A DNA stretch of 4,254 nucleotides from a virus (Duplodnaviria; Heunggongvirae; Uroviricota; Caudoviricetes): IMG/VR virus record IMGVR_UViG_2531839233_000010, one strand, 5' to 3'. The position numbers and the translations under genes were made by a program. A model generated the notes under the pieces. It did not search any database. It was given only the letters and a program-made list of their open reading frames with translations, and had not been told where the DNA came from. Positions 170 through 3,270 of this stretch are shown one piece after another. How positions within the stretch are numbered: the stretch's first letter is position 1; each line of letters starts with the position of its first letter.

Positions 170-196
170 TTGACTTTTTTGTTTACTGTTTATTAA
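170..196 (+). promoter_or_regulatory. Candidate sigma70 late promoter (pR'-like)
   Basis: TTGACT at 170-175 (same -35 hexamer as lambda pR'), 15-bp spacer, TATTAA at 191-196. It starts 4 bp after the upstream stop and sits about 175 nt upstream of a strong terminator, the geometry of lambda pR'-6S RNA-tR'. The short spacer and imperfect -10 keep confidence modest. Confidence 0.35.
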
Positions 197-352
197 AAAA
201 TCAACCGCATGGTGAATCCTCCTTGGAGGGGCTAAATGATCGAGTTTTAAGGGCACGTAGCGAGTTCTGTTTGATCATTGCAGAACTTAGCGGGAGGCGC
301 CATGCGTACATCACTAATGTTATTTCCTTCTATCATTTTCCTTGTGAGTTCT

Positions 353-379
353 GGCTGCGCATGGCGCGGCCTTTTTTTT
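353..379 (+). terminator. Rho-independent terminator (tR'-like, end of late leader transcript)
   Basis: Stem GGCTGCGC (353-360) pairs with GCGCGGCC (364-371): 8 bp including one G-U, loop ATG, followed directly by eight T (372-379). Confidence 0.7.
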
Positions 380-560
380 ATGACCTGCCACTGGCAGATG
401 GTCATCCTGTGATTTGATTCCGGTTCCGGCTTTTTAACTCTGTTCCTGTACACGGGAGAAATTCTATGTCGATTAATCGTTATGATATTGGTTACAAGAA
501 GTACCACGTATTGTGTTGAGATAGAAAGCATGGTGCCAGAGGTAAATGCAGCAGCATAAT

Positions 561-608
561 AAAAAAGAGCCAGCGCAGAAGAGAACGGGTAAAAGAGTCT
601 GCGCTGGC
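561..608 (-). terminator. Candidate rho-independent terminator for minus-strand transcription
   Basis: Perfect 11-bp inverted repeat GCCAGCGCAGA (569-579) / TCTGCGCTGGC (598-608) with an 18-nt loop. On the minus strand the hairpin is followed by TCTTTTTTATTAT (complement of 556-568); no T-tract follows on the plus strand. Confidence 0.45.
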
Positions 609-659
609 GTGGGGATATTCCCCGTGGAGAAATGATATGTAACACACATCGGGAACCTT

Positions 660-1003: not shown

Positions 1004-1500
1004 TGTCGCCATCATTACGCAAGGCTGTTGCTGCTGCTATTGGTGGTGGGGCTGCTGCCATAGCGTCTGTGCTCATCACTGGTCCGAGTGGTGACGATGG
1101 CCTGGAAGGTGTCAGCTACATACCATACGAAGATATCGTTGGCGTATGGACTGTATGTCACGGACACACCGGAAAAGACATCATTCCCGGTAAAACGTAT
1201 ACCGAAGCAGAATGCAAAGCCCTCCTGAATAAAGACCTTGCCACGGTCGCCAGACAAATTAACCCGTACATCAAAGTCGATATACCGGAAACAACGCGCG
1301 GCGCTCTTTACTCGTTCGTTTACAACGTGGGCGCTGGTAATTTCAGAACATCGACGCTTCTTCGCAAAATAAACCAGGGTGATATCAAAGGCGCATGTGA
1401 TCAGCTACGGCGCTGGACATACGCTGGCGGTAAGCAATGGAAAGGGCTGATGACTCGCCGCGAGATTGAGCGTGAAGTCTGTTTGTGGGGGCAACAATGA
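1003..1500 (+). CDS. R: SAR endolysin (phage 21 R21-like, T4-lysozyme-type muramidase with N-terminal signal-anchor-release domain)
   Basis: 165 aa. N-terminal Gly/Ala-rich weakly hydrophobic segment ([20 protein letters not shown]) typical of a SAR domain. Lysozyme catalytic triad at the expected spacing (E35, D44, T50 in ...[23 protein letters not shown]...). Start ATG 1003-1005 overlaps the holin stop (TAATG). Confidence 0.93.
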
Positions 1501-1964
1501 GCAGAGTAACCGCGATTATCTCCGCTCTGGTTATCTGCATCATCGTCTGCCAGTCATGGGCGGTTAATCATTACCGTGATAACGCCATCGCCTATAAAGA
1601 ACAGCGTGATAAAAAAGTCAGTGAGCTGAAGCAGGCGACCGCCACCATTACTGACATGCAGCAGCGCCAGCGTGCTGCTGATGCACTCGATGCTAAATAC
1701 ACGAAGGAGTTAGCTGATGCGAAAGCTAAAAATGATGCTCTTCGGCGCAAGCTTGATAATGGTGGTCGGGTGTTCGTCAAAGGAAAATGCCCTGTGCCAT
1801 CCTCAGACGAAACCTCCAGCGCCTCCGGCATGGGCAATGATGCCACCGTCGAACTCTCTCCAGTTGCTGGACGAAACGTTCTCGGTATCCGGGACGGAAT
1901 TATCCGCGACCAAACAGCACTGAGAACGCTTCAGGAATACATCAGGACGCAATGCCTTCGATGA
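1497..1964 (+). CDS. Rz: Rz inner-membrane spanin (i-spanin)
   Basis: 155 aa from ATG 1497 (overlapping the endolysin stop TGA 1498-1500 as ATGA). N-terminal TMD ([15 protein letters not shown]) followed by a charged coiled-coil-like periplasmic domain. The 5' nucleotide sequence is near-identical to lambda Rz as I recall it. The ORF-track start at 1485 is a GTG extension. Confidence 0.9.
1717..1923 (+). CDS. Rz1: Rz1 outer-membrane lipoprotein spanin (o-spanin), embedded in +1 frame within Rz
   Basis: 68 aa: [44 protein letters not shown]... Signal peptide with lipobox VVGC and a Pro-rich mature region, as in lambda Rz1. AAGGAG sits 7 nt upstream of the ATG. Entirely nested inside Rz in a different frame. 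Confidence 0.85.
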
Positions 1965-2138
1965 TAGCGATAATTTTACTCATCATCCTTCACATCTGGC
2001 TCTGTAGACAGGGTGGTGCTCACTTCTGGAGTGAATCATGGTTAAACATCTCATTGCTGATGCTTGATATTGAGCATCTGGCGCGCGGTAAGGGGCTGCG
2101 TTGAGATAAGAGCCAGTCATTAAAAATACCTGGATTTA

Positions 2139-2162
2139 GCCTCGCATTCGCGGGGCTTTTTT
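2139..2162 (+). terminator. Rho-independent terminator downstream of the lysis cassette
   Basis: Stem GCCTCGC (2139-2145) pairs with GCGGGGC (2150-2156): 7 bp including one G-U, loop ATTC, followed by TTTTTT (2157-2162). Confidence 0.6.
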
Positions 2163-2200: not shown

Positions 2201-2298
2201 GATAATGGCTTATACCCTACACGGGATAACTTAACTGATATCCCTTTTAACGGATAAAGGTATTCAAGCCTGACACATCATGCGCTGTATCGTCGCTG

Positions 2299-2363
2299 TA
2301 TTCCCGCATTAACCATGACCGTAGCCCGACGGGGAACTCCTTCTGCGCGAGTGTGCGGGAATA
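2299..2363. other. Long-range inverted repeat / structured element in the Rz-cos intergenic region
   Basis: TATTCCCGCA (2299-2308) is the exact reverse complement of TGCGGGAATA (2354-2363), enclosing a 45-nt GC-rich segment (2309-2353). The surrounding 2295-2460 stretch resembles, from memory, a lambda segment located between bor and cos. Confidence 0.4.
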
Positions 2364-2589
2364 ATCAAAAACGATGCACACCGGGTTTTTACCGCGCTAA
2401 TGATTCGCGGGTTTGTCCCTCATGCTCGCCAGTCCTGTGCGGGGGTGGAAGAAACAGGACACTCACACAGATTCTTGTGGGTCGATGCTATTCCTTTCTG
2501 GATTATCCCGATGCCATTCATGCAAGGGCTGTATCAGACGTTCGTCATGGCTTTCAGGCTGACGGCTCCTCCCGGTGGGGTGGCCTGCC

Positions 2590-2778: not shown

Positions 2779-3270
2779 ATGGATCATGAGTTGAAAAACC
2801 TGGTGCTGAATATTAATCAACTGGCGGCTTTATCTGGTCTGCACCGCCAGACTGTCGTGGCAAGACTGAAAAACATTCGTCCCGCTGGTGGACATGACAA
2901 ACTCAAGCTATACCGGTTGACCGATATTCTGACTGAATTTATGGGGTTACCACCGCCGGTTGCTGAGGGCGAAATGGATCCACATGAACGCAAAGCCTGG
3001 TATCAGTCTGAACGTGAGCGTCTTAAGTTCGAACAGGAAACGGCACAACTCATTCCGGCCAGTGATGTCAGACGGGAGTTTGCCATCTGGGCAAAAGCGG
3101 TCGTGCAGGTGCTGGAGACATTACCGGATATTCTGGAACGTGACTGTGGTCTGCAGCCTGCCGCTGTGAGCCGTGTTCAGTCCATTATTGATGATCTGCG
3201 CGATCAGATAGCCCTGCGGGTGACCGAAGCAGGTGCGGATGATGAGGAGGAATTACAGCAGGAGGAGTAA
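2779..3270 (+). CDS. Terminase small subunit (Nu1-like DNA packaging protein, N-terminal HTH)
   Basis: 163 aa. GGAGG at 2767-2771 lies 7 nt before ATG 2779. The N-terminus LNINQLAALSGLHRQTVVARL follows the lambda Nu1 helix-turn-helix pattern (VNKKQLADIFGASIRTIQNW), and the C-terminus is acidic. Position is immediately upstream of the large terminase with a TAATG overlap at 3268-3272. Similarity to Nu1 is by pattern, not high identity. Confidence 0.7.
   Translation: MDHELKNLVLNINQLAALSGLHRQTVVARLKNIRPAGGHDKLKLYRLTDILTEFMGLPPPVAEGEMDPHERKAWYQSERERLKFEQETAQLIPASDVRREFAIWAKAVVQVLETLPDILERDCGLQPAAVSRVQSIIDDLRDQIALRVTEAGADDEEELQQEE

Follow-up and report, generated by a model that had tools for sequence, protein, structure and literature searches.

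Several described kinds of structured or regulatory RNA invite comparison with the element reported here, an RNA module of about 180 nucleotides (nt) delimited by homology borders and by a covariance model (R1) to positions 2281-2460, plus strand, of a 4,254-nt stretch of a Caudoviricetes virus (IMG/VR record IMGVR_UViG_2531839233_000010; this whole stretch is called the window below). The open reading frames (ORFs) listed for the window and an Rfam scan identify it as late-region DNA of a lambdoid prophage. The RNase III hairpins of the T7 R1.1 type, lambda sib, and the N-leader sites are likewise intercistronic in a long phage transcript, are similar to the two coaxial stems of the element (P1 of 7 bp and P2 of 11 bp, 18 bp together, with an asymmetric internal loop between them whose sides are constant at 5 and 7 nt), and suggest that a hairpin or pseudoknot left after processing could shield the mRNA upstream at its 3' end. 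However, the element is much larger than these sites, with a second hairpin, a pseudoknot, and strongly conserved loops, and no sequence similarity to them was found. The EAR (eps-associated RNA) and HK022 put RNAs are likewise structured RNAs that lie within a very long operon, or at its beginning, and act in cis without encoding a gene, and EAR has a pseudoknot, as has the element; both modify the transcribing polymerase. In contrast, the element has no match to any Rfam family at E up to 10, antitermination in the late operon is already provided by Q, and HK022 is without the element at this junction.

The small RNAs (sRNAs) AsxR, AgvB, Esr41, and STnc100/PasD are likewise non-coding RNAs at conserved places in the late region of lambdoid prophages, and two of this kind are found in the window itself, at 177-382 (plus strand) and 559-648 (minus strand). 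These anti-sRNAs and Pas sRNAs are 50-200 nt long and Hfq-dependent, have their own promoters and terminators, and lie between pR' and the holin gene, whereas the element comes after Rz, has no terminator, and has neither an Rfam match nor a peak in Hfq cross-linking and immunoprecipitation (CLIP) data. Identity with one of them was considered and rejected: AsxR, AgvB, and the EcOnc/Pas sRNAs are located between pR' and the holin gene (Tree et al. 2014), the element is downstream of Rz, and it gives no match to RF02702, RF02703, RF02676, or RF02076. Orphan phage RNA motifs (those in Rfam of the Breaker and Weinberg type) are likewise defined only by covariation, conserved loops, and context, but the element lies outside the 4,227 families of Rfam 15 and yet within the otherwise exhaustively annotated genomes of lambda and Escherichia coli K-12. 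We find firm support for a structured RNA module on the plus strand that does not code for protein, is accessory, has been shuffled horizontally, and is fixed at the boundary between the lysis and packaging genes, and comparison of its copies makes it a credible candidate for a new structured RNA family in lambda-like phages, absent from the catalogues.

Covariation and fold of the element

The starting point was a first-pass annotation of the window, which had proposed a conserved non-coding element with a 10-bp inverted repeat that pairs differently, through a compensatory change, in lambda. Read directly from the sequence, TATTCCCGCA (2299-2308) and TGCGGGAATA (2354-2363) are perfect reverse complements, and the smaller second hairpin that it described, CCGCG (2392-2396) with CGCGG (2406-2410), is present. 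In a BLASTN comparison with lambda (NC_001416), window 2281-2388 aligns with lambda 46868-46974, between bor and lambdap78, and the lambda arms that the annotation had given, TATTCCCGGA and TCCGGGAATA, are correct and stand at the homologous place; the C-G to G-C swap relative to lambda is real, and pairing is kept. By itself, a perfect inverted repeat of 10 bp is within chance expectation (at least one occurs in 28% of first-order Markov sequences as long as the window), and the case therefore rests on covariation across homologues. When homologues are aligned, the lambda swap proves to be just one of many compensatory changes, and the annotated 10-bp helix proves to be P2, one of seven or eight helices.

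Two alignments were used: A1, made with MAFFT, contains 88 distinct copies, and A2 contains 31 de-replicated copies that are less than 94.5% identical, a divergent clade included. RNAalifold, run on the 88 copies, recovered P1, P2, and a 3' hairpin, and the pairing of P3, P3a, P4a, and S1 was suggested by inspection of variants. Across the proposed pairs of A1, 95.5% of cells are paired and 21 of 43 pairs have changes on both sides, compared with 9.2 +/- 1.7 pairs in shuffled alignments (0 of 500 reach 21) and 5-11 in slid controls. The corresponding figures for A2 are 93.7% of cells and 23 of 45 pairs, against 12.0 +/- 2.1 in shuffles (0 of 500 reach 23) and 6-13 in slid controls, and the covariation score of A2 is 0.280 where slid controls give 0.044-0.094. 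All 11 pseudoknot pairs (five in S1 and six in S2) have changed on both sides in A2, in compensatory fashion, and the divergent clade preserves every helix with a different sequence. Plain mutual information with average product correction was uninformative; two large subfamilies dominate it. The inner pairs given by RNAalifold (A1 58-62/83-87 and 67-69/74-76) were replaced by P3 and P3a because of a deletion variant in phage P8983, single-sequence folds, and the copy at locus L286.

The fold that results has three parts: a 5' domain made of P1, P2, P3, and P3a, a variable hairpin P4 closed by P4a, and a 3' H-type pseudoknot formed by S1 and S2. In the 5' domain, P1 joins GUAUCGU (2287-2293) to ACGAUGC (2371-2377), and the same haplotypes support both strands: GUAUCGU/ACGAUGC, GUAUUGU/ACGAUAC, GCAUCGU/ACGAUGC, and GUACUGU/ACAGUGC are all fully paired, as is GCACUGU/ACAGUGC in the divergent homologue L236. 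P2, supported by covariation in both strands, joins UAUUCCCGCAU (2299-2309) to GUGCGGGAAUA (2353-2363), which are the left and right arms of the first-pass annotation; 18 haplotypes pair fully, with changes that include C-G to G-C in lambda, U-A, C-G, or U.G at position 4, and, in the Raoultella clade, A-U in place of G-C. Above P2, the 5' side of the internal loop between P2 and P3 reads UAAC NNN GAC (2310-2319), with column conservation of at least 0.9 except for the middle three bases. P3 pairs CGUAG (2320-2324) with CUGCG (2343-2347), has 95-98% of its cells paired, takes C-G, U.G, or U-A as its middle pair, and is kept in P8983 despite deletion of the tip hairpin. That tip, P3a (CCC-GACG-GGG, 2325-2334), is 100% paired, is CCAG/CUGG in L286 instead of CCC/GGG, and carries a tetraloop that is variable (GACA, GACC, UACG, GAAA, and UUGC occur). 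The 3' strand of P3 is followed by the conserved loop NGAGU, the two spanning 2343-2352, and the pattern TCTGCG.GAGTGT......ATAAT is unbroken in 117 of the 122 family copies gathered by an independent 3' pattern. The junction from P2 back to P1, AUCAAAA (2364-2370), is conserved at 0.9 or more in each column.

The middle part is the most freely rebuilt. P4a pairs GGG (2383-2385) with CCC (2417-2419); it is paired in 91% of cells, has changed from G-C to C-G in three copies, and closes the variable hairpin in the single-sequence folds of most types. P4 itself (CCGCG...CGCGG, 2392-2410) is the second hairpin of the first-pass annotation, and in other copies it is swapped for unrelated hairpins at the same position: UCUCAU/AUGGGA in P8983, CUGUG/CGCAG in L022, CAGC/GCUG in ES18, and CACGUU/AACGUG in L286. 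The 3' strand of P4a and the conserved CUCAU linker (2417-2424 together) lead into the pseudoknot, in which S1 pairs CUCGC (2425-2429) with GCGGG (2439-2443) and S2 pairs UCCUGU (2433-2438) with ACAGGA (2454-2459), the last conserved bases of the module. Since the 3' strand of S1 lies between both strands of S2, the arrangement is of the H type: the order is S1-5', S2-5', S1-3', S2-3', the loops measure 3, 0, and 10 nt, and both stems have support, S1 from nine fully paired haplotypes (among them GUCGC/GCGAU, CUCGC/GCGGG, GCGGC/GCCGU, GCCGC/GCGGU, and UCAGC/GCUGG) and S2 from ten (among them UCCUGU/ACAGGA, UCCGGU/ACCGGA, and CUCGAU/AUCGAG), with the further S2 variants AUGAA/UUCAU and CACUG/CAGUG. 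Loop 3 of the pseudoknot, the purine-rich GGUGGAAGAA (2444-2453), is conserved at 0.8-1.0 among copies gathered by the 5' pattern, and GAAGAA is kept in the divergent clade. Circularity in such values was avoided by scoring each half of the element on copies gathered by the pattern of the other half. Scored in this way, the CGCYG junction, UAAC...GAC, NGAGU, AUCAAAA, the ACACC linker, and the pseudoknot loop GGUGGAAGAA are each conserved at about 0.9 or more. An alternative pairing of CACCGGG (2379-2385) with CCGGUG was discarded, being mismatched in the window and in lambda while S2 covaries. A likeness of P3a and AUUAAC to boxB and boxA (nut-like) was also set aside: the P3a loop varies freely and the AU of AUUAAC is paired.

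The 5' domain is stable on its own, at -33.6 kcal/mol (z = -2.70, with 0 of 200 shuffles folding as well), and its minimum-energy structure is exactly P1-P2-P3-P3a; diverged copies folded independently give the same P1 and P2. The proposed pairs also tell the two strands apart. G.U occurs in 409 cells and A.C or C.A in 63, many of the A.C cells at helix-terminal positions, so that the plus strand is the folded strand. Pairing reaches 95.5% if the RNA is read from the plus strand and 86.2% if it is read from the minus strand, and the R1 score of the window is 206.8 bits for the plus strand but 3.3 bits for the minus strand. The late operon transcribes the strand that folds. The first-pass annotation had left the choice between RNA and DNA structure undecided; a selected structure stands, and the G.U excess over A.C narrows it to the plus strand, most likely as RNA.

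The other possibility, a structure in single-stranded DNA of the top strand, such as a priming or initiation signal in rolling-circle replication or packaging, we give hardly any chance. G.T wobble is tolerated in single-stranded DNA hairpins too, so that strand asymmetry alone cannot separate the two molecules, and the element is near cos or pac in many phages. However, an H-type pseudoknot with an A-rich third loop is a typical RNA architecture, the element accompanies cos-type and headful-type terminases alike and is 1.5 kb from cos in lambda, and the strand that folds is the one the late operon transcribes.

Distribution and modular behaviour

When seven diverse copies are aligned, the borders of the element are sharp: homology starts at TGCGC (2281) and stops at AACAGGA (2459), and the flanks are unrelated. 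The first-pass span of 2295-2465 had placed the element correctly, but its extent is 2281-2460, wider on the 5' side. More than 500 phage records carry this segment. We gathered 120 viral contigs with a pattern for the 5' half and 120 with an independent pattern for the 3' half, and also scanned 120 metagenome contigs obtained with a relaxed pattern and species-representative genomes. In every case the element has the orientation of the lysis and terminase genes, that is, the sense of the late operon. The nearest upstream ORF is usually an Rz homologue (63 related loci), and other upstream neighbours are the accessory genes rha and kilA or bor on the opposite strand. On the other side, the ORFs sort into five or more clusters with no relationship to one another (HNH endonucleases, a lipoprotein, a small terminase of the 933W type, and two Nu1-like families), and the gap to the next ORF ranges from 67 to more than 1,300 nt. 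A single type of left flank is found next to six or more types of right flank, and the converse is true too; with its flanks reshuffled in this way, the segment behaves as an independent mosaic module. The annotation had also said that the element persists here in the absence of bor, and both halves of that statement hold: tblastn with lambda Bor gives no significant match in the window, and the element is found in many contexts that lack bor.

The element is very common in E. coli, where 3,852 of 5,426 complete genomes (about 71%) carry it, with up to six copies each. Almost all of the listed matches are without annotation there, and the Prokaryotic Genome Annotation Pipeline (PGAP) annotates none. 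The copy in the window is 100% identical to a chromosomal sequence of E. coli O157:H7, Shiga toxin (Stx) phages are among the carriers, and K-12 MG1655 has a lambda-type copy in prophage DLP12, between borD and ybcV. Beyond Escherichia, Shigella, and Salmonella, only a Raoultella-type clade turned up in the genome, metagenome, and BLAST scans; wider hunts through genome contigs, relaxed-pattern metagenomes, and BLAST with the Raoultella copy gave mostly near-identical E. coli phage copies, contamination, and chance matches. Contigs of 48 kb or about 3.5 kb assigned to Pseudomonas, Cohnella, Flavobacterium, Vibrio, and others (many of the genome-contig loci L128-L183) are identical to lambda across the element and most likely reflect contamination with spike-in or control DNA. 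Model R1, built from 31 copies, scores the window at 206.8 bits, ES18 at 161.7, DLP12 at 134.5, and lambda at 129.8, and at the same junction of P22, HK97, HK022, and Gifsy-2 it gives 5.5 bits or less, with no element found there. On the genomes compared, the element is an accessory rather than a universal feature of lambdoid phages.

Tandem double copies, 0.95 or 1.8 kb apart, occur in several contigs (L014, L257, L259, L282, and L319). In the first of these the copies lie at 5054-5239 and 6004-6189, with an accessory gene before each and lambda-like Nu1 and A genes after the second. Such arrangements bear on the possibility that the segment is a linker without RNA function, kept by homologous recombination or by hitch-hiking, whose structure is a by-product. 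The tandem two-copy loci flank an inserted gene, the same left flank occurs with six or more right flanks and conversely, there are recombinant-like copies with a single S2 mismatch (for example UCCGGU/ACAGGA), and plain mutual information is dominated by linkage within subfamilies, all of which speak for a linker. But pairing-preserving changes on both sides of a helix are far above slid controls, which retain the relatedness of the copies, the strong excess of G.U over A.C is unexpected for double-stranded DNA, and the P4, S1, and S2 helices have been rebuilt with unrelated sequences, which leaves the linker a slim chance. It and the single-stranded DNA structure are the least likely of the readings considered, because of the compensatory changes and the pseudoknot.

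Coding potential, signals, and neighbouring features

In both orientations, each reading frame is interrupted by stops in the majority of the 88 copies, so no frame is conserved, and the copies range in length from 163 to 185 nt with all residues modulo 3 represented. The view of the first-pass annotation that this is a selected secondary structure rather than coding sequence is borne out by the absence of a conserved frame together with covariation well above the shuffled and slid controls. Its dismissal of the ORFs at 2315-2620 and 2400-2789 is likewise upheld; both cross the putative cosN and are not credible genes. Elsewhere, ORFs labelled "Rz-like spanin" or "hypothetical protein" have been annotated over the element in NC_004913 (58327-58572) and NC_000902 (about 27522-27634). 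The non-coding evidence makes these doubtful, and they probably arose as artefacts of annotation.

A scan of 1900-2800 gave no promoter-like site, which argues against an independent sRNA gene, and no intrinsic terminator lies inside 2281-2460, the scan giving only 2138-2157 and 2710-2725 around it. The sequence directly upstream and downstream of the element differs between copies, and since the flanks are not conserved, the RNA is most simply a part of the pR' late transcript; established lambda biology would have it transcribed in this way. A short ORF or Shine-Dalgarno sequence right after the pseudoknot was considered and dropped, as start codons occur there in some flank types and not in others.

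The element also stands outside the known families. A cmscan of the window against the 4,227 families of Rfam 15 at E up to 1 gives nothing in 2281-2460, the element alone at E up to 10 gives chance matches of 10-11 bits only, and the divergent homologue L236 gives 10-13 bits only. ARAGORN finds no transfer RNA or transfer-messenger RNA gene in the window. We found no description of the element in the published literature, exact-sequence searches included, although subscription journals were thinly covered and an earlier account is possible. Papers on DRT3 and Kiwa were considered and are irrelevant to the element.

Upstream in the window lie a holin gene (743-1003), a gene for an endolysin of the signal-arrest-release (SAR) type (1003-1500), and Rz (1485-1964, plus strand), the last upstream lysis gene, with Rz1 (1717-1923, plus strand) inside its span. 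Downstream are a Nu1-like small terminase gene (2779-3270, plus strand) and then the start of the large terminase gene; the roughly 800 nt between Rz and the Nu1-like gene hold no credible gene. These assignments come from the ORF list. A 50-codon ORF (1952-2104, plus strand) overlaps the end of Rz and is labelled hypothetical in phage Ayreon, and a good intrinsic terminator follows it at 2138-2157 (plus strand; AGCCTCGCATTCGCGGGGCT plus a T run). Just 5' of the element is a separate conserved block (2165-2280, chiefly 2191-2258) that contains a bidirectional-terminator-like hairpin, AAAGCCACTCCCTACAGAGTGGCTTT, at about 2197-2222. This block is 92-99% identical in Sf6, HK022, HK620, HK140, and epsilon34, all of which are without the element, and window 2253-2280 is similar to the 3' end of a Rha-family gene of P8983. 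On the other side, GGGCGGGAGCGT followed by CGCGG at about 2593-2604 is similar to lambda cosN (GGGCGGCGACCT CGCGGG) and is probably a cohesive-end site, by this resemblance, about 135 nt 3' of the element. Phage Ayreon departs from the window exactly at the putative cosN (about 2593-2604), with about 150 bases extra.

The two sRNA-like features lie further upstream. The STnc100-like RNA at 177-382 (plus strand) scores 37.7 bits against an Rfam gathering score of 47 and has a terminator at its end, at about 352-382. It is the counterpart of the Hfq-bound EcOnc13 of Sakai prophage Sp3, belongs to the PasD/STnc100 class beside Q, and probably represents the pR' leader or 6S-like transcript. An Esr41-like sRNA at 559-648 (minus strand) runs convergently to the pR' leader and scores 32.3 bits, far short of its gathering score of 102. 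The published northern probe for EcOnc32, an sRNA of prophage Sp3, matches window 614-648 except for one additional C, which implies that the window is approximately Sakai Sp3 or a close relative and that the RNA at 559-648 is one of the convergent sRNA pair described upstream of the holin gene (Tree et al. 2014).

Possible roles in the late transcript

The function that we place first, though at somewhat less than an even chance, is that of a nuclease-resistant RNA domain within the late transcript, which would mark a boundary, confer stability, or yield a stable RNA on processing, as its architecture suggests. The module would travel whole from one lambdoid phage to another, always arriving where the lysis cassette meets the packaging genes, and would be read from the plus strand within the Q-antiterminated late transcript, without a conserved promoter or terminator of its own. 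The stable hairpin at the 5' edge, together with the pseudoknot that ends exactly where the element does, would confer resistance to scanning by RNase E and to 3' exonucleases. It may then act in either of two ways: as a boundary or stabiliser that separates the decay of the lysis and morphogenesis parts of a late mRNA of 20 kb or more, or as a survivor of processing, an abundant stand-alone late RNA that would bind a partner through its conserved loops. A role at the RNA level is favoured because a stable hairpin begins 6 nt inside the 5' border, because a compact pseudoknot ends exactly at the 3' border, and because the module occupies a long gap in the late mRNA that goes untranslated.

Several observations weigh against a nuclease-resistant domain. 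The folding energy of the 196-nt stretch as a whole is no better than that of shuffled sequences (z = -0.85). The loops and junctions are about as conserved as the stems, and a nuclease barrier would not need conserved loops, which suggests a specific partner, a ligand, or a catalytic core instead. The lambda-type copies (lambda and DLP12 among them) have S1 broken by two G-to-A changes (GCCAA/GCUGA), and a few copies have the 3' domain only (half of P4 and the pseudoknot), fused to unrelated upstream sequence that is coding-like; some copies do without the 5' domain or S1, so a complete fold is not essential. The absence of the element from P22, HK97, HK022, and Gifsy-2 means that it is not needed for late gene expression as such. 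No Hfq-CLIP peak is found at the corresponding site of Sakai, in data from uninduced O157 Sakai, when late transcription is off. Finally, the family is young and narrow (Escherichia, Shigella, Salmonella, and Raoultella, at 70-100% identity), and its conservation partly reflects recent ancestry.

The imperfect copies are themselves of several kinds. Close relatives of the lambda type (L009 and a copy in E. albertii) keep S1 as GCCAG/CUGGC, and lambda's own copy may be partly degenerate. One subtype is without the CCCUCAU-S1 segment, and CCCUCAU is missing from the lambda-type copies of lambda (L003, 1469-1634) and of K-12 DLP12 (L188, 3510-3676). The truncated copies with the 3' domain only are at loci L191, L203, L204, L205, and L233.

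The strong conservation of the loops argues for specific recognition, whether by a protein, an RNA, or a ligand, or for a catalytic core of the RNA's own, and it makes both a riboswitch- or ribozyme-like RNA and a trans-acting late RNA live alternatives to a nuclease-resistant domain. In the first of these, the element would be a new class of riboswitch-like or self-cleaving RNA whose binding pocket or catalytic core is built from the conserved internal loops, the junctions, and the pseudoknot, and which would act on the downstream packaging genes by being cleaved or by changing its conformation. A pseudoknotted fold of several domains with highly conserved unpaired segments (UAAC..GAC, NGAGU, AUCAAAA, and GGUGGAAGAA), junction lengths that are constant across clades, an intergenic position within a long operon, and the lack of a match to a known family are all consistent with this. 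Nevertheless, no conserved expression platform follows (a terminator is lacking, and neither start codons nor Shine-Dalgarno sequences keep a constant spacing), the next ORF is 67 to more than 1,300 nt away and the next genes are unrelated to each other, and natural copies with a broken S1 or a lost domain persist. Q-modified RNA polymerase also ignores terminators and passes them, as is established for lambda. We consider such an RNA, proposed here from the form of the fold, rather improbable.

A trans-acting late RNA would be released from the late transcript and directed against the host or its defences, serving in lytic growth as a decoy, a sponge, or a protein-binding RNA by a logic analogous to that of the prophage anti-sRNAs. 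The module is accessory and horizontally shuffled, as morons are, and very common in E. coli prophages, those of Stx phages included; conservation stops where its structured 5' and 3' ends do, and prophage regulatory RNAs have precedent in the same window. However, the element is without a promoter of its own, it is not among the Hfq-bound RNAs of Sakai, and our analysis found no target or partner for it, so that this role appears unlikely. More broadly, we hold it possible, if on the doubtful side, that the element is the first representative of a new class of functional RNA carried by lambdoid phages, abundant from the late transcript, whether self-cleaving, responsive to a ligand or protein, or an anti-defence decoy.

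The interest of the element lies mainly in its presence, unannotated, in lambda, in K-12, and in Stx phages, and in being directly testable. Lambda, its relatives, and the Stx phages are heavily studied, and the stretch between the lysis genes and cos has been treated as empty spacer or as doubtful small ORFs. A functional RNA here would correct the spurious ORF annotations over the element, would add a new part to the late operon, and would provide a handle on how a late mRNA longer than 20 kb is divided up, kept stable, or exploited. If this is true, lambda and K-12 would always have carried an unrecognised functional RNA gene at the boundary between lysis and packaging.

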